From the NCBI GenBank assembly GCA_018303825.1, contig JAGVXK010000001.1:1-18556 (forward strand): DNA of 18,556 nucleotides, in the 5' to 3' direction. Positions 8,033 through 16,782 of this stretch are shown here, in pieces; the first letter of the stretch is position 1; each line of letters starts with the position of its first letter. The notes under the pieces are model-generated. The model did no database searches, was not told the origin of the DNA, and worked only from the letters and a program-made list of their open reading frames with translations. The DNA is from Candidatus Pacearchaeota archaeon (GTDB lineage Archaea > Nanobdellota > Nanobdellia > Pacearchaeales > GW2011-AR1). The translations under genes were made by a program, and so were the position numbers.

Positions 8033-8109
8033 GGACCGCAAATAAACGGCACCTATTCTAATTGTTATTACTCAAATTTTACCTTATCCCAAACTGCATC
8101 AACTATCTC
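8033..8109. repeat. Solo decayed copy of the left end of the 12091-14842 element, including the 3' end of an unknown gene
   Basis: 8043-8102 matches 12102-12161 at 49/60 nt. The minus strand encodes EIVDAVWDKVKFE* versus KIIDAIWDKIKFE*. GGACCGCAAA at 8033 is a transition-decayed GAGCTGTAAA terminus. Confidence 0.8.
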
Positions 8110-9879: not shown

Positions 9880-11475
9880 ATGGCAGTAAACATACATAAG
9901 CTGATAGCAGCGATAAACCCTGACCTGTACTGTGATAATGAGGTTGACGAAATGGGAGTGAGCGCAAAGGAAAAAGTGGAAAAGATGCTTGAAGAGGAAA
10001 GGAAAGCTGGAAACAAGCATCCTTATCTTGCCGCGGCCAAGGAAGCAAAATTGAGAGTAGGAGAGTGGATGGACATAAAGGAGATTGACATTGACCGAAA
10101 CACCATGGATTATAAAAAGATATTTGCAAATGGGGTTGAGAAACACCTTCTTGTCTATGATGCCTTCGGAGAGTCCCTTGAGCCGATATATTTCTGGCTC
10201 CTTGATTTGATGAACTCGTTCTTTAAAGGAAGCACTGAAAAGATTGTGGATAACTTTTCTTCCTCTGTTTCGTCTAGTTTCTTCGCTGAAATGGGGCAGA
10301 GGGCAACAAGAATGCAGGAAGAATCCATGAAAATTCTTGGAACATTAAATACAGTAATTAAATCTGTACTGAATATATTATATGACTTAAAAGAGTTCAG
10401 GATAAGGCTTGAAACATATGTTGAATCTCACTCTCAAGATAATGCAAAAAGGAATGCCGCTTTTCTTGCACTAAAGCAGATATGGCTTGACCAGGTTGAT
10501 ATGAAAAAGGGAACAACTGCCATAAAGGCGATGGCGCAGCAATTTGATTATGTAACACTTATAGATGCATTTATGGCTACTTCATCTTTGAATGATATCA
10601 CAAAACCAGTCGAGCAGGGGGGTTTGGATTTAAATGAAAGAGTTAAGAGATTGCTACAGCAGAGATATGGAGAATTTGAGAGATGGCTTTCCGAAAGCGA
10701 AAAAGAACTGACAAAAAGATTTGAGATTGAGAAAAATTATCTAAAGGGGCAAATGGCTTCTCTTAGAATGTATTCAAAGTGGATAAAACCATACCTGAAG
10801 GCTGCTGCTCAATTGGAAAATAATGAGATGAGCAGCTCTGCCCTTGTAAGCGCATTCAATACTTTAATTTTAGAGCTCGCAGTTTTGGGAAAGGGAGAGT
10901 ATAAGCCAATTGATGATGTAAAAACAGGAGATCTGCCGACAATTTATAAAAAATTAGTTGAAAATGGAAGGATAAGAAAATATTCTCCTGTAATGATAAC
11001 TGAATTCAGATTCAGAAGCGCTCCTGAAAGAATGCAGCAGGGAGGATATGGATTCAGAGGGAGAGCTGAAGTTGAGTTTACCAGTTATGCATTGACAGAT
11101 GATGAGATGAAAATTATTAAAGCAGAGCTGGAGGAAGATGAACTTGGAGACACTCTTAAATTAATACAGGAATCAACTCAGGAAAGCATAGAAGCCATTG
11201 AAAAAGACATCAAAGAGTTTCTTGAAGACAAAAAATCTGAAATTAAGAAGGATGAAGAGAAAATAGATGAGGAAGATTCAAATCCATTCTCATCATTATT
11301 CTCTTTCCTAAAAAGCGACAAGAGCAAGAAATCAGCTGTTTCAGTAGAAAAGAAAGAAACTGACTTTGAGATGGTAGTTAGAGCAAATGCACTTATCTCA
11401 GCAAGAAAGATATGCAGGAAGATATATGATATCTACAAGAAGGCGCACAGCATGCCTACCTTCCCGGGAAGCTAA
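9880..11475 (+). CDS. Large hypothetical protein, predicted helical/coiled-coil
   Basis: 531-aa ORF with host-like composition and an acidic stretch near the C-terminus. No Walker or other motif recognised. Confidence 0.85.
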   Translation: MAVNIHKLIAAINPDLYCDNEVDEMGVSAKEKVEKMLEEERKAGNKHPYLAAAKEAKLRVGEWMDIKEIDIDRNTMDYKKIFANGVEKHLLVYDAFGESLEPIYFWLLDLMNSFFKGSTEKIVDNFSSSVSSSFFAEMGQRATRMQEESMKILGTLNTVIKSVLNILYDLKEFRIRLETYVESHSQDNAKRNAAFLALKQIWLDQVDMKKGTTAIKAMAQQFDYVTLIDAFMATSSLNDITKPVEQGGLDLNERVKRLLQQRYGEFERWLSESEKELTKRFEIEKNYLKGQMASLRMYSKWIKPYLKAAAQLENNEMSSSALVSAFNTLILELAVLGKGEYKPIDDVKTGDLPTIYKKLVENGRIRKYSPVMITEFRFRSAPERMQQGGYGFRGRAEVEFTSYALTDDEMKIIKAELEEDELGDTLKLIQESTQESIEAIEKDIKEFLEDKKSEIKKDEEKIDEEDSNPFSSLFSFLKSDKSKKSAVSVEKKETDFEMVVRANALISARKICRKIYDIYKKAHSMPTFPGS

Positions 11476-11539: not shown

Positions 11540-12082
11540 ATGGCTAGACCTAAGAAGCAAAAGATAAAGATTGTTGAATCAAAGATAAAAAGTATTGAGC
11601 AAACTGGGAAACCTGTTGGGCAAACATTGGAAAAAGAGCTGGAGCAGGAATCAAAGGAGCAATTTCATGAATTTATCTCAACAGGGAAGATGAAAGCTCC
11701 TGTTCTGGAGACTGGACAAAACGTTCAAAACATTGAAACACCAACAGAACAAAAACAAACAGCAAATACAACTGAAACTGGAAGGGGGGCGCAGATAAAC
11801 CCTGAATTCTCTGTTTATGAAATGGCAAGGACTGTCGGGAGAACAGAAACAAGAGCATCAAGGGCGAAATATGAAGCAATGACACATGGGGGAGACCCTG
11901 TTATGATGAAAACCATTAACGCACAAAGACCAAATGAAACAGCAACCATTATGAATGACAGGAGAGCAGGGTTTGTCAATCCAGAATTAGAGAGGTTAAA
12001 TGCTGGAAGGGAAGACTATTATGGAGTTAAGATAGAGAAAGAAGAGAAGAAGAAAGACACCAGAATGCCCTGGGAAACATGA
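11540..12082 (+). CDS. Hypothetical hydrophilic protein
   Basis: ORF track gives 11387-12082, but that overlaps the upstream gene. TTTATATA at about 11511-11518 supports a start at ATG 11540 (or 11531). The stop codon overlaps the left TSD. Confidence 0.7.
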   Translation: MARPKKQKIKIVESKIKSIEQTGKPVGQTLEKELEQESKEQFHEFISTGKMKAPVLETGQNVQNIETPTEQKQTANTTETGRGAQINPEFSVYEMARTVGRTETRASRAKYEAMTHGGDPVMMKTINAQRPNETATIMNDRRAGFVNPELERLNAGREDYYGVKIEKEEKKKDTRMPWET

Positions 12083-12126
12083 TAAAAGGTGAGCTGTAAA
12101 GTAAACGGCACCTATTCTAACCAAAG

Positions 12127-12183
12127 TTACTCAAATTTTATCTTGTCCCAGATCGCATCAATAATCTTTCTTTTGATTAATCG
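12127..12183 (-). pseudogene. 3' remnant of an unidentified gene (RLIKRKIIDAIWDKIKFE*)
   Basis: Conserved at protein level with the copy at 8068-8109 (mostly synonymous or conservative changes). The 5' part is missing at the IS200 junction. Confidence 0.6.
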
Positions 12184-12725
12184 TTATACCCTATGGTCTT
12201 GCCATAGGGTGAGAGCCAATAACTATTAAACCTAAAAATATGTTGGCTTATCTATGGATGAACTTGAAAAATCAGCACATAAGATTTTCAAATTGAAATA
12301 TCACTTTGTCTTTTGTGTAAAATATAGAAAAGATATGTTTCTCGATAAAGATTACTGTGAAACCTTTACATATACTTGTAAACAAATGGAAGAAAGATAT
12401 TCGATGAAATTCGAAACGATTGGTTTTGATGAAAATCATGTTCACTTTATGCTAAAATCTTTGGCAAAATATTCTCCATCTCAACTTTTTAGAATCGTGA
12501 AAAGTGTTACAGCATTAAGAATGTTCAAAACTTATCCCAAGATAAAAGATGAATTATGGGGTGGAGAATTTTGGAGTGATGGCGGATATGTTGGTACGGT
12601 TGGTGAAGGAGTTAATGCGGACATCATTAGAGATTACATTAAAAAACAAGGTAGAAAAGGAGAACAGCTTAAGCTGTTCGAATTCATCTAAAGATGCCAC
12701 GAGGTCTTGCCTCGTGGAGCTTCAC
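12184..12725 (+). mobile_element. IS200-type insertion sequence (tnpA only), nested in the larger element
   Basis: Left hairpin ACCCTATGG-TCTTG-CCATAGGGT (12188-12210) and right hairpin CCACGAGG-TCTTG-CCTCGTGG (12697-12717), ending in TCAC (12722-12725). The left boundary is approximate. Confidence 0.9.
12254..12691 (+). CDS. tnpA: IS200/IS605 family Y1 (HUH) transposase
   Basis: YHFVFCVKYRK, HUH motif ENHVHF, FWSDGGYVGTVG, and catalytic Tyr in DYIKKQ. Confidence 0.96.
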   Translation: MDELEKSAHKIFKLKYHFVFCVKYRKDMFLDKDYCETFTYTCKQMEERYSMKFETIGFDENHVHFMLKSLAKYSPSQLFRIVKSVTALRMFKTYPKIKDELWGGEFWSDGGYVGTVGEGVNADIIRDYIKKQGRKGEQLKLFEFI

Positions 12726-12772
12726 TTATTTCGTTTTGAAAGTTCGCTTTTTAAAAATGAGAGGATTTCTAA

Positions 12773-13603
12773 TTATTTTTGCACGGTGCCTTCGGCACTT
12801 TTAACAACTACCCGACCAACCTCGTCGGAGCCCAGAGGATCCCCAATGTGGCCAGCACCGAGGAGCCCGTAGACACCCAGCCTCGAAAATCTTTTACTTC
12901 CAGAAACTCCGTAAAAATGTTTACCTTGTCCTCTAACTGGAAAAGCAGTAGTTGGATCTAATTTTGAGAAGTCATATCCTTCTTGTGCTTCCTTTGCTGT
13001 AATCTCAATAGGCCTAACAGCATCTTTAACGGTTGGATTTAGTCTGAATGAATAACTGCTAACTTTTCCGAATGGAGAATTATCTCCTTCAAGTCTAACA
13101 GGAACTATTGCTCTATAAGGAACTGAAACAATTGCTTTAGAACCATGCATAGCATCAATCTCTCTGTTCAGCTCCTCTTCCCAAGGCATTAACTTGTCCT
13201 GAGTTGCATATGGATTTCTTATAAAAGAGACATCAAACCAGAACCTTCCATTGAAAAATCCTTTCTTTCCTTCAGCTAATCTTCTAACTTCATCATTATA
13301 AATTCTAGCATGATCTCTTTCGTCGCATAACTGAATTCCCAAATCTTCCAGATCAACTAAGTTTAAACCAGCTAGGACAGGCAAATTTGATTCAACAAGT
13401 TCCTTCCCTTTATCAGTGTTTGCTATTCTAAGAGTGCCTTCTAATCCAGGAAAACCCTGAAACTGTTCTCTAAATTTTCTTGTTGCTCTTTCTAGGACTT
13501 CGTCTGCTAAATCGCCAGAAATAACATTATAGTCCATCCTCATTTCTCTAACTGGAATAGTTTCAACAAATCCTTCAAATTGCAGTTGTTTTTCATTAAA
13601 CAT
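12773..13603 (-). CDS. Putative DGR variable (target) protein, DPANN-type with C-terminal CLec-like variable region
   Basis: C-terminus SRL...S...GRVVV.SAEG matches the architecture I recognise in Pacearchaeota DGR targets. The last ~25 variable codons are strongly A-depleted and GC-rich. TATTTAAA (minus-strand TTTAAATA) at 13625-13632. Confidence 0.75.
   Translation of the reverse strand: MFNEKQLQFEGFVETIPVREMRMDYNVISGDLADEVLERATRKFREQFQGFPGLEGTLRIANTDKGKELVESNLPVLAGLNLVDLEDLGIQLCDERDHARIYNDEVRRLAEGKKGFFNGRFWFDVSFIRNPYATQDKLMPWEEELNREIDAMHGSKAIVSVPYRAIVPVRLEGDNSPFGKVSSYSFRLNPTVKDAVRPIEITAKEAQEGYDFSKLDPTTAFPVRGQGKHFYGVSGSKRFSRLGVYGLLGAGHIGDPLGSDEVGRVVVKSAEGTVQK
12786..12798 (-). other. GC-rich hairpin 3' of the VR (candidate DGR homing stem-loop)
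   Basis: Coding strand GTGCC-GAA-GGCAC: 5-bp stem with GAA loop, 13 nt after the VR core. Confidence 0.6.
12812..12886 (-). other. Putative DGR variable region (VR)
   Basis: 75 nt on the coding strand with only 7 adenines and 50 G+C (67%) in an otherwise AT-rich gene. Codons such as GGT, TAC, CTC, GGC, CAC, ATT, CCT, GAC and GTT are all derivable from AAY by changes at A only. Confidence 0.72.
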
Positions 13604-13685
13604 ACTTTTTCTAAAAATAAAGGATATTTAAAGCTTTCTATTTGTTACTATAGGATAGTTACTACAACGGAGAGATAGTTATTCT

Positions 13686-13720
13686 TTCATGTACCGAAAG
13701 ATATATAAGTGTCATGTACC
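13686..13720 (+). promoter_or_regulatory. Transposase promoter with CATGTACC boxes flanking the TATA box
   Basis: CATGTACC at 13688-13695 and 13713-13720 around ATATATAAG (13701-13709). Bases 13686-13710 match the reverse complement of 14777-14801 at 22/25. Confidence 0.65.
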
Positions 13721-13730
13721 TGAATACAGT

Positions 13731-14597
13731 ATGGTGAGCGTTATTATTTGTAAGCATTGTAAGTCAAACAATAATTACAAAAAAGGGTTTAGGAGAACAG
13801 AATTCAGAGGGAAGATACAGAAATATTATTGTAAAACTTGCCATAAATTCTTTACAAATGATGATGGATTTTATAGAATGAGAAACAATCCCGGCATTAT
13901 AACTATGTCGATTGATATGTATGTGTCTAATTTATCTTCTAGGAAAATGAGAAATCAATTAAAAAGACATCTTAATTATAAGATAAGTCATATTTCTATA
14001 TTGGATTGGGTAAGGAGATATGCTTTAAGAGTTAGCAGATTTGTTGAAAGATTAGGTTATAACTTGGGAGAAAGTTTTTATGCAGATGAAACAGTTATAT
14101 TCAGAGAAGGAAAACAAGATAAGTTTTGGTGTTGTTTAGATTGGGATACAAGATTAATAACTGGATTTCACTATTCTTTATCGGCTAACCCAACACAAGC
14201 ACAAGAGTTTTTGAAAAAAGCAATAAGCAAAGGAAAACCAAAATATATTCAAACAGACGCAGGAGTATTTTATCCGAGAGCTTTCAAAAAGCTCTTTTAT
14301 TCTAATAAACTAAGCGGTCTGACAATAGAACATAAGATACAAAACTACCAAACAACACATATTCACAATTATAGAATTGAAACTGTCTTTATGAAAATCA
14401 AAGACAGAGTTCTTGATTTTAGAGGACTAAAAGCTTTATGGTCTGCCCCTATTTTGATGACTGCAATAGTTATCCAGCATAACTTTATAGAAAATCATTC
14501 AACAACAGATGAAGTTCCTTGTGATAGCGCAAATGCAGACTTAAATTTAAGCGAGAATAGATGGCTAGATTTAATTCATTTATCAGCCAACAAATGA
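13731..14597 (+). CDS. IS6-like DDE transposase with N-terminal zinc ribbon
   Basis: CKHC...CKTC zinc ribbon, HTH (SSRKMRNQLKRHLNYKISHISILDWVRRY), and DDE triad in YADET, IQTDA and RIETVF. Start moved from 13689 to ATG 13731 because the upstream ATG lies before the TATA box. Confidence 0.88.
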   Translation: MVSVIICKHCKSNNNYKKGFRRTEFRGKIQKYYCKTCHKFFTNDDGFYRMRNNPGIITMSIDMYVSNLSSRKMRNQLKRHLNYKISHISILDWVRRYALRVSRFVERLGYNLGESFYADETVIFREGKQDKFWCCLDWDTRLITGFHYSLSANPTQAQEFLKKAISKGKPKYIQTDAGVFYPRAFKKLFYSNKLSGLTIEHKIQNYQTTHIHNYRIETVFMKIKDRVLDFRGLKALWSAPILMTAIVIQHNFIENHSTTDEVPCDSANADLNLSENRWLDLIHLSANK

Positions 14598-14756
14598 TTA
14601 TTCTTTTTCGATAATTATCTTATCTTTTTCTAACTTTGCTTTGAGATCCTTTCCTAAAAGCTTTGATTCCTGGACAATATTTTTAGGTAGAATGACGATG
14701 TATCTTGTGTACTTCTTATCTCCAATCTTTTTATCTAACACCTCTCTTATTTTCAT
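14598..14756 (-). CDS. AbrB/MazE/SpoVT-like small DNA-binding protein
   Basis: 52 aa, MKIREV...KYTRYIVILPKNIVQESKL.GKDL...EKDKIIIEKE, fitting the swapped-hairpin pattern. Its stop directly abuts the transposase stop (TGA|TTA). Confidence 0.75.
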   Translation of the reverse strand: MKIREVLDKKIGDKKYTRYIVILPKNIVQESKLLGKDLKAKLEKDKIIIEKE

Positions 14757-14776
14757 AACTTGAATAAGAAAGTTAA

Positions 14777-14801
14777 ACTTATAAATATGTCGGTACATGA
14801 A
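14777..14801 (-). promoter_or_regulatory. Promoter of the AbrB-like gene, mirror copy of the transposase promoter
   Basis: Minus strand TTCATGTACCGACATATTTATAAGT: CATGTACC box then TTTATAA, about 22-30 nt before ATG 14756. Confidence 0.65.
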
Positions 14802-14928
14802 GCAAAAATCTTGAAAAATAGGTAACGCTAACTTAACAGCTCATAAAAGGTTAGTTTTAAATAAAGTCTTTGATTAGATAAGATAGGCAAGTTGATAAGG
14901 ATAAAAAAGAGGGGTAAACAAGATAAAA

Positions 14929-16782
14929 ATGAGCGATGAAAATTTTTATAACGGGGCAAGGAGCTCGAGCTATGGAAGCAGCGAGAAGTATGGAGAATCT
15001 TTTTTCGGACCAGAATACAGGGCATCAGCAGGAAGTTTTGCCGTGACAACAGACCCAAGAACAGCAAACAAGCTGAAAGATGTTTCTAATAAACTTAATA
15101 CAGGAATAAAAGCCATAGAAATAACAGCATTACAGCCAAATCTTTTCGAGACAATTCCCGACCAGCACTTGGAAGAACTAAATAGATTGAGAAAATTATC
15201 CAAAGTGGATTTAAGTTTGCATGGACCATTAATAGAAGCTTCTGGAATATCAAAAGAAGGAGTTGATGAACCAAGAAGGCAGCAGGCGGAAAGACAGATG
15301 GCATCTGTTGTGGAAAGAGCCAATAAACTAAATCCTAATGGAAATATTGTTATAACATTCCACACCACTTCGGGGCTTCCTGAAATGAAAAACAGAGTTC
15401 TCACAGAAGAAAAAGAAGAGAAGAAGGAGAAAGTTACAGAGATGTATGTAATCAACGAAAGAGATGGCGTAATAAATGTAATTAAATCCAAAATAAACTA
15501 TCTTGAAGGCGAGAAAGAGTCAGACCCATTGAAAGAATTGAAAAGAGTAAATGAAGAATCCTGGGATAAACAGCTCGGAAATATAGTTTTCCATGCTAGG
15601 CAAGGAAGAGAAGGAATTTCTGAAGCATTTAAAGGTGAAATGGGAGCTGAAAAAATAGAAAATGGAGAATCTATAGTTGCAGAAGCTTATAAAAAATATA
15701 ATACTCCTGAAGGACAGAAATTTATTGATAGTTTGACTTCTGCAGAAAGAAAATATGTTGAAAGAAATATAAGTGCTTTGAATTATGCTGACATTTATGT
15801 AAGAGATGCATACAATGGATTACAAGAGATGTTTAACAAAGCGTGGGAAGTTGTTCAAAAAGACGGAAATGAAGCTGATAAGAAGAGATTGGAAGAATAC
15901 AGGGAAAGGATGATGAAAAGAATTAAGGAGATTAAAGACCCTACAAAACTTCCTGAACTTGCAGATGATGTTGTCAAGGGCGTTGCAATACTCAGCACAC
16001 TGTCAAAAACTCCTGAAACATTGAAACCATTGCAGGATTTTGTCATGGAAAGATCTTCAGAGACATATTCTAATGTTGCTTTGAATGCTTATAAAAAATT
16101 CAAGGACAAGGCGCCGATTATCAGCTTGGAAAATCCTCCTGTCGGAATGGGAATTGGAAGAGCAGAAGACATGAGGACTTTGATTGATGCTTCAAGAAAA
16201 AAACTTGCCACTAAGCTGGTTGAAAATCAGGGATTGAGCGAAAGCGAAGCCAAACAGCAGGCTGATAAACTTATCGGAGCAACATGGGATGTTGGACACA
16301 TAAACATGCTTCGTCAATACGGATATTCTGAAAAAGATATTCTTGAAGAGACAAAAAAGATTGCTCCTTATGTAAATAAAATGCATTTATCTGACAATTT
16401 TGGTTTTGAGCACGGAGAACTTCCTATGGGAATGGGAAATGTTCCTATGAAAGGGCATCTTAAGGAATTACAAGCAGCACATGGTGATAAAATCAAAGAC
16501 ATAAAAAAAATTATCGAAGCCGGAGACTGGTACCAGCACTTCCAGACAAGCCCATTCAAGAAAACGATGGAGGCTTTTGGCTCCCCCATTTATGGAATGG
16601 ATATGGCTCCTTATTGGAATCAATCCCCTGTTTTATCAGGACCGGGATATTTCTCCGGATATGGGATGATGCTTCCAGAACAGCACTTCTCAATGTATGG
16701 TGCGGGATTCTCAAATCTCCCAACAGAGCTTGGTGGGCAGATGGCTGGAAGGTCAAGACTTTCCGGAAATCAGATGGAATAA
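14929..16782 (+). CDS. Xylose isomerase-like / AP endonuclease family 2 TIM-barrel protein with large helical insertion
   Basis: Metal-ligand motifs LSLHGP, ITFH, ISLENPP, TWDVGHINM, KMHLSDNFG, IIEAG. An insertion of roughly 240 aa lies between the FH and EN motifs. Confidence 0.82.
   Translation: MSDENFYNGARSSSYGSSEKYGESFFGPEYRASAGSFAVTTDPRTANKLKDVSNKLNTGIKAIEITALQPNLFETIPDQHLEELNRLRKLSKVDLSLHGPLIEASGISKEGVDEPRRQQAERQMASVVERANKLNPNGNIVITFHTTSGLPEMKNRVLTEEKEEKKEKVTEMYVINERDGVINVIKSKINYLEGEKESDPLKELKRVNEESWDKQLGNIVFHARQGREGISEAFKGEMGAEKIENGESIVAEAYKKYNTPEGQKFIDSLTSAERKYVERNISALNYADIYVRDAYNGLQEMFNKAWEVVQKDGNEADKKRLEEYRERMMKRIKEIKDPTKLPELADDVVKGVAILSTLSKTPETLKPLQDFVMERSSETYSNVALNAYKKFKDKAPIISLENPPVGMGIGRAEDMRTLIDASRKKLATKLVENQGLSESEAKQQADKLIGATWDVGHINMLRQYGYSEKDILEETKKIAPYVNKMHLSDNFGFEHGELPMGMGNVPMKGHLKELQAAHGDKIKDIKKIIEAGDWYQHFQTSPFKKTMEAFGSPIYGMDMAPYWNQSPVLSGPGYFSGYGMMLPEQHFSMYGAGFSNLPTELGGQMAGRSRLSGNQME

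Follow-up and report, generated by a model that had tools for sequence, protein, structure and literature searches.

Why does one gene of an AT-rich archaeal contig end in a short segment so poor in adenine? The gene is an open reading frame (ORF) on the minus strand (12773-13603) of an 18,556-nt contig from a Candidatus Pacearchaeota archaeon (assembly GCA_018303825.1, JAGVXK010000001.1). This contig, C17, was analyzed entire and is called the window below. A first-pass annotation made from the sequence alone had taken the segment for the variable region (VR) of a diversity-generating retroelement (DGR), orphaned from its template repeat (TR) and reverse transcriptase (RT). In DGRs the RT copies the TR RNA, misincorporating opposite template adenines, and the cDNA then replaces the VR. 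The composition on which the annotation relied was borne out by counting: the coding strand of 12812-12886 holds A7 C20 G30 T18, that is seven A in 75 nt and 66.7% GC, and the gene outside this segment has 34% A and 36% GC. The assembly (806 kb, 23 contigs, ~35% GC, 85.7% complete) offers 1.6 million 75-nt segments on its two strands. Only four of them have at most 7 A and at least 50 G or C, and all four overlap the VR locus, the sole site of such composition in the 806 kb and one far beyond chance.

That 12773-13603 is the target gene of a nanoarchaeal (DPANN) DGR and carries a genuine VR is supported by its orthologues, because the segment is homologous, in register, to VR/TR pairs with adenine-specific TRs and adjacent RTs. 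The orthologues (57-62% identity) come from two other Nanoarchaeota metagenome-assembled genomes (MAGs) and corresponding metagenome contigs (loci L007 to L011), and a Nanoarchaeota MAG protein is also the closest of the gene's named homologues. Their cassettes run target, ~200-nt spacer, TR, RT: on all L007-L011 contigs the target is followed by a same-strand non-coding gap of ~280-310 nt (spacer plus TR) and then by a DGR-type RT, and a copy of the target's C-terminal segment lies just upstream of each RT. In L008, whose DGR-type RT is 310 nt downstream of the target stop, all 16 internal mismatches between VR and TR fall at TR adenines, which is the defining signature of a DGR template/variable pair. 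L007 has 10 adenine-specific and 4 other internal mismatches and a frameshifted RT; this cassette seems to be decaying.

The window VR aligns without gaps and in register with the L007 and L008 pairs, from TTTTCG (12889) to GGTCGGGTAG (12808), with its mutable positions at about 12811-12883. Compared with the L008 TR it is mismatched at 19 of 26 TR adenines (73%) and at 11 of the 58 other positions (19%; Fisher p = 3.5e-6); for the L007 TR the corresponding figures are 15/21 and 12/63 (p = 2e-5). The first-pass annotation had held that the codons could be derived from AAY (Y being C or T), and nine AAY codons of the L008 TR do align with NNY codons in the window (TAC, CTC, GGT, GGC, ATT, GAT, GGC, GAC and GTT). 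The template peptide that it had reconstructed likewise proves close to the peptide of the L008 TR. It had also asked whether homologues are conserved across the segment; they are not, and the variation falls exactly at the AAY positions of the orthologous templates.

How widespread are such targets? Of 301 genomes of this order searched with a profile, 29 (the source genome counted) contain C-terminal relatives. Twenty loci were fetched with flanks of 1.5 kb, 19 of them from other genomes. Seven of these 19 have VR/TR pairs with 76-100% adenine bias, six of the seven with an RT inside the short flanks. The adenine-specific templates that the first-pass annotation had proposed to look for in related genomes are thus found, adjoining DGR-type RTs in L008, L014, L017, L019, L020 and L024. 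The self-BLAST used to detect TRs overlooked the L007 and L008 pairs, which are plain by eye, and its negatives at the other loci, within 1.5-kb flanks, are no evidence of absence.

The 3' end of the VR carries a motif resembling the initiation of mutagenic homing (IMH) site, and downstream of it a hairpin. The annotation had placed this GTGCC-GAA-GGCAC hairpin after the gene; it is present, but inside the ORF, where its codons read S-A-E-G-T and the stop codon follows 10 nt further on. The 13-mer occurs twice in the assembly, the other copy following the VR of a DGR on contig C20. When related loci are compared, the GAA loop is constant and stands at an equal distance from the IMH-like motif. 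The stems differ (GTGCC/GGCAC, GTCGC/GCGAC, GCACC/GGTGC, CCGGC/GCCGG and CAGCGCC/GGCGCTG), by compensatory (covarying) changes. Published nanoarchaeal DGRs have hairpins with GRA trinucleotide loops inside their target genes, and TGGGGT (IMH) and TGGAAT (IMH*) motifs (PMC4372165). The window locus resembles the DGRs of Nanoarchaeota and other DPANN (Paul et al. 2015, PMC4372165; AvpA, Handa et al. 2016, PMC5006420, PDB 5IOO) in its small target without a Pfam domain and with a predicted C-type-lectin-like (CLec) fold, its C-terminal VR of about 25 codons, its IMH-type xGGGT in the VR versus xGAAT in the TR, and its GRA-loop hairpin within the target ORF. It shares with them also the order target, TR, RT in the orthologous cassettes, in whose spacers no Avd-sized ORF was seen.

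Is the target protein of the kind that DGRs diversify? It is full length relative to its orthologues (273-276 aa) and a TTTAAATA box stands some 25-30 nt before the ATG; the gene is intact, and on these two grounds its expression probably persists. A Pfam search of the protein returned no family. An AlphaFold2 model built on a 12-sequence family alignment (pLDDT 88.6, pTM 0.87) was submitted to an exhaustive VIA-align comparison, in which the top match was the Thermus DGR variable protein TaqVP (Z 6.7, root mean square deviation 3.6 A, 177 residues) and the second was the nanoarchaeal DGR variable protein AvpA (Z 4.7, 141 residues). The remainder of the 50 rows are nearly all CLec or formylglycine-generating-enzyme-type folds, TvpA among them. 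A Foldseek search of the model against PDB gave nothing at E<=0.001, its weak rows including TaqVP and lectins. The Z-scores are middling and the match list is coherent; the protein is predicted to have a CLec fold, as the first-pass annotation would have it.

The structural match to AvpA is modest, and no sequence similarity to it can be detected: the family profile brought up no AvpA at E<=10 among PDB sequences, and no meaningful match; the protein is not placed in the AvpA sequence family, which is marked by the motifs GxxVVVYAH, HPxxxPFxG and RFxGV. The two proteins also differ in layout, AvpA having a 46-residue tail past the VR and hairpin, which in the window target stand at the extreme C-terminus. 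The target is thus a sequence family distinct from AvpA, in the same fold class. TaqVP (Thermus aquaticus, PDB 5VF4, PMC6328139) has in common with the window target the CLec fold and a C-terminal VR, but it is a bacterial protein of 381 aa that is 8% identical, and nothing beyond the fold speaks for common descent. The target on contig C20 (P0004) also had no AvpA match among PDB sequences, and BLASTP found no similarity between it and the window target (P0001).

Where, then, is the template? BLAST of the VR against its own assembly matched only the VR itself and a short stretch at the C20 DGR hairpin. All 23 contigs were also scanned ungapped on both strands, with template adenines allowed opposite any base (a first version was swamped by A-rich DNA and was rescored); no TR emerged, the best matches having at least 11 non-adenine mismatches in 80 positions. 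The motif GAAGCAGTGGTGRCATGAAGA, which precedes the TR in L007, L008 and C20, occurs once in the assembly, at the C20 TR; motif searches of the assembly for this pre-TR element and for both hairpin types led to the C20 DGR only, and BLAST of the L007 and L008 spacers and TRs against the assembly returned only the C20 pre-TR motif and the window VR. The word orphan was therefore apt, no cognate template being found in the assembly.

Only one other RT occurs in the assembly, at C20:55612-56674, where a G10 run splits it. It shares 59-62% identity with the RTs of L007 and L008 and is part of a canonical DGR (C20:55612-57778; L002, L005, L006) with a TR of its own and a 275-aa target that has a ~55-residue tail past the VR; its VR and TR show 13 adenine-specific differences and none other up to the 3' boundary. 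The C20 TR was considered as template for the window VR and rejected, the best register leaving 16 non-A mismatches in 44 positions. The assembly accordingly lacks a complete functional DGR cassette for this target, as it contains neither a cognate VR/TR pair nor an intact RT.

What became of the cassette's own TR and RT can be read from the DNA downstream of the target (Table 1). Homology to the L007 and L008 spacers runs from the gene through GAAATAA and stops at the right end of an insertion sequence (IS). This element has a Y1 (HUH) transposase and subterminal hairpins at both ends, and so belongs to IS200/IS605; it is single-copy in the assembly. In its 145-aa transposase, its hairpins and its length of about 540 bp it is like the tnpA-only IS200 elements, and it differs from the family at large in having no tnpB (its ends are approximate, there being a single copy). 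An alternative annotation of its ORF as an AbrB-like regulator was rejected on the Pfam match to Y1 transposases.

Beyond the IS200 lies a frame of 18 codons; in tblastn it is best matched by the final 12 residues of the L007 RT, and a longer paralogous stub (C22:85729-85854) matches the C-terminal tails of the L007, C19, C20 and L014 RTs. With moderate confidence, the frame being short, we take it to be the 3' remnant of the cassette's own RT. Since it reads as such a stub, about 1.3 kb comprising the TR and some 95% of the RT would have been deleted, with the IS200 at the junction. The statement that no RT or TR is nearby accordingly holds for the TR and fails for the RT. We also considered whether the DNA left of the IS200 is orthologous spacer, but that alignment was suggestive at most, and an RT tail followed by an inverted repeat explains this DNA better.

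Table 1. Features of the target locus and of the mobile DNA around it, in window coordinates
Feature	Position	Strand	Details
Target duplication, 9 bp	12082-12090 and 14843-14851		ATAAAAGGT, perfect
Left inverted repeat of the 2752-bp unit, 26 bp	12091-12116	plus	
DGR RT 3' stub, last 18 codons (putative)	12130-12183, stop 12127-12129	minus, co-oriented with target	...KRKIIDAIWDKIKFE
IS200-type insertion sequence	12184-12726 (ends approximate)	plus	Y1 transposase and hairpins
IS200 left-end hairpin	12189-12209		CCCTATGG-TCTTG-CCATAGGG, subterminal
tnpA, Y1 transposase, 145 aa	12254-12691	plus	Pfam Y1_Tnp, E = 3.4e-29, profile positions 2-121 of 121
IS200 right-end hairpin	12697-12717		CCACGAGG-TCTTG-CCTCGTGG, subterminal
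Retained start of VR-to-TR spacer, ~47 nt	12727-12772	minus	conserved with L007/L008; AAAGCGAACT at 12741-12750
DGR target (variable protein) gene	12773-13603	minus	276 aa; ORF/translation and orthologues
Hairpin GTGCC-GAA-GGCAC	12786-12798	minus	12 nt downstream of IMH-like motif, within ORF
VR	~12808-12889	minus	segment repeated as TR in orthologues; gap-free alignment to L008/L007 pairs
IMH-like motif	12810-12817	minus	GGTCGGGT, at VR 3' end; orthologous TRs have GGTCGAAT there
IS6-like (IS240-type) DDE transposase, 302 aa	13689-14597	plus	Pfam DDE_Tnp_IS240, E = 3.6e-13
Right inverted repeat of the unit, 26 bp	14817-14842	minus	21/26 matches to left repeat

The history that we propose is as follows. 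A DGR RT would have copied the TR RNA to cDNA, erring opposite template adenines, and the cDNA would have replaced the VR, the IMH-like motif and GAA-loop hairpin guiding this homing. The result would have been the randomisation of some 13 codons, most of them AAY in the template, on the ligand-binding face of a CLec-fold protein; past mutagenic homing of this kind, by the established DGR mechanism, would account for the VR's low A and high G and C content. The TR and most of the RT would then have been lost, the IS200 marking the junction, and homing would have ended. The VR is most likely now a frozen variant, the relic of a DGR, because no cognate TR is in the assembly and the only other RT is frameshifted and has an unrelated TR. 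An identical 276-aa protein is found on 9 contigs from several repositories, the longest of 86 kb, and its 90% cluster contains no variant; this lends weak support to a frozen VR, as active diversification would be expected to yield variants.

Several points weigh against this conclusion. The identification of the RT stub depends on 12-23 aligned residues, the 9 contigs are possibly re-depositions of few assemblies (which makes the invariance of the protein weak evidence), and with ~86% of the genome assembled a cognate TR could sit in the rest. The window hairpin and its 12-nt spacing, moreover, match those of the resident C20 DGR exactly, unlike those of the orthologues, which is compatible with service by the same machinery. 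Could the VR then still be diversified in trans, the other option that the first-pass annotation had left? The cognate TR would have to lie in the unassembled ~14% or on another replicon, and a C20-type RT would have to act on it, slippage in a fraction of the population overcoming its G10 frameshift. Cellular DGRs are known to have remote targets (PMC5758913), RT-less VRs of Nanoarchaeota have been discussed as possibly 'diversified remotely' (PMC4372165), and the C20 RT is close in sequence to the RTs beside the target's orthologues. The window gene is like known remote targets, for example in Treponema denticola (PMC5758913), in lying far from any RT, but those match the resident TR except for A-to-N changes, and between the window VR and the one TR in the assembly there is no such match. 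The independent template searches, the single pre-TR motif and the sameness of the protein on its 9 contigs speak against diversification in trans as well; the only RT is out of frame, and survival of the gene's own RT as a stub implies that an adjacent TR was deleted rather than relocated. A frozen variant is therefore favoured, and diversification in trans seems improbable.

Two further explanations were weighed. IS elements often break or mis-join MAG contigs, and IS6-like copies lie at contig ends of C5 and C16, so the window might be joined wrongly across repeated mobile-element DNA and the real target still be followed by TR and RT. This is very improbable: the IS200, being single-copy, offers no repeat across which to mis-join, the parts form a coherent series, from the spacer through an IS200 whose two hairpins match to the RT tail and the inverted repeat, with a perfect 9-bp duplication at either side, and the flanks agree with the conserved synteny of relatives. 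The GC-rich patch might also owe nothing to a DGR and instead be a structured RNA gene embedded there, a fragment acquired horizontally or chance composition, given that GC-rich islands often mark RNA genes in AT-rich archaeal genomes. Scans of the whole window found, however, no Rfam family (gathering thresholds) and no tRNA, and a known RNA family was dropped as its source; the patch is in frame and codon-for-codon homologous to VRs with adenine-specific TRs, and its composition is unique in the genome. An origin other than a DGR is scarcely credible, the least probable of the readings considered here.

VRs with a history of adenine mutagenesis but with no RT nearby were reported in Nanoarchaeota by Paul et al. 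(2015, PMC4372165), who took them for fossils or remote targets. The window locus thus adds an example to a class known since 2015, and not a principle. It differs from the published cases in that the cause of orphaning appears to be visible, as a deletion of TR and RT with an IS200 at the junction. If so, it documents the death of a DGR in a reduced DPANN genome, with template and RT lost at the IS200 site and the CLec-fold target left intact. The locus also illustrates that a call made on composition alone (A-poor and GC-rich sequence, NNY codons, GAA hairpin) can rightly identify a DGR VR that has no visible template.

Other remnants of DGRs occur in the same assembly. At C19:37236-38382 lies a further relic, whose 259-aa target ends in a VR-like segment (...CNCDNDGYAFGGLNSGEASAQKN) and is immediately followed by a stub of 77 aa from an RT C-terminus; a TR was not seen there. 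The stub at C22:85729-85854, mentioned above, is an isolated RT C-terminus of 41 codons (...WANTHKLREKIKKDIIDAIWDKIRFE*) without an adjoining inverted repeat. Since it contains one DGR that is nearly intact but frameshifted, two or more relic targets and several stubs of RTs, this genome is a useful case for the study of DGR turnover.

The RT genes of the related loci have peculiarities of their own. A G12 run lies ~50 nt past the YVDD motif at L007:1947-1958, L010:1927-1938 and L021:2033-2044, and in each the RT is put out of frame by an equal shift. L007 and L010 are one cassette present in more than one assembly, and L021 comes from another genome; the run is not present at that RT site in L008, L014, L019 and L024. 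Together with the G10 run of C20, the G12 runs suggest that the RT genes of nanoarchaeal DGRs have recurrent homopolymer switches or undergo programmed slippage. In L008 (3111-4244), a 274-aa RT ORF ends directly beside an opposite-strand ORF of 377 aa with a CxxC motif, which may be a transposase that disrupted the DGR RT.

The target gene, the IS200 and the putative RT stub lie within a larger mobile unit of 2752 bp (12091-14842), which also contains a DDE transposase. Its transposase, terminal inverted repeats and target-site duplication make it an IS6-like DDE transposon unit; paralogues of the transposase are found on C20, C5 and C16. The IS6 family usually makes an 8-bp target duplication, and the duplication here is of 9 bp; for this reason the unit is assigned no further than 'IS6-like'. 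Is the unit an insertion? The core genes that flank it stand close together in relatives, which indicates that it is: a homologue of ORF 9880-11475 lies close upstream of a homologue of ORF 14929-16782 in four relatives, and the gap between them is about 700-880 nt in relatives with both ends in the locus, against 3454 nt in the window. Subtraction of the unit and one copy of the duplication brings the window gap to 693 nt.

The same inverted repeats bound a second unit, C20:11461-15613, which has a 9-bp duplication of its own (CGATATTGT) and an IS6-like transposase. Its cargo, a 755-aa protein whose N-terminus is hydrophobic and a hydrophobic protein of 149 aa, differs from that of the window unit, so this transposon family carries varied cargo. 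Was the DGR itself once cargo? It is possible, though we hold it rather less than evenly probable, that left inverted repeat, RT, TR, target, transposase and right inverted repeat formed one transposon that moved whole, generating the 9-bp duplication. The junction of RT tail (...EIVDAVWDKVKFE*) and left inverted repeat occurs a second time in the window, as a truncated copy at 8033-8109 (80% identity over 69 nt, 8040-8108) with no partner repeat nearby. This looks like the remnant of another insertion of the same element family; the junction is thus older than at least one duplication, and the second copy suggests that DPANN archaea have a family of transposons that carry DGRs. Were this so, such transposons would offer hypervariable genes a way to spread before they are stranded as frozen variants. 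Within the window unit, inner 32-nt inverted repeats (13679-13710 and 14777-14808, 81% complementary) flank the DDE transposase gene, the left arm overlapping its start codon; these may be either the ends of the IS core itself or a palindrome with a regulatory role.

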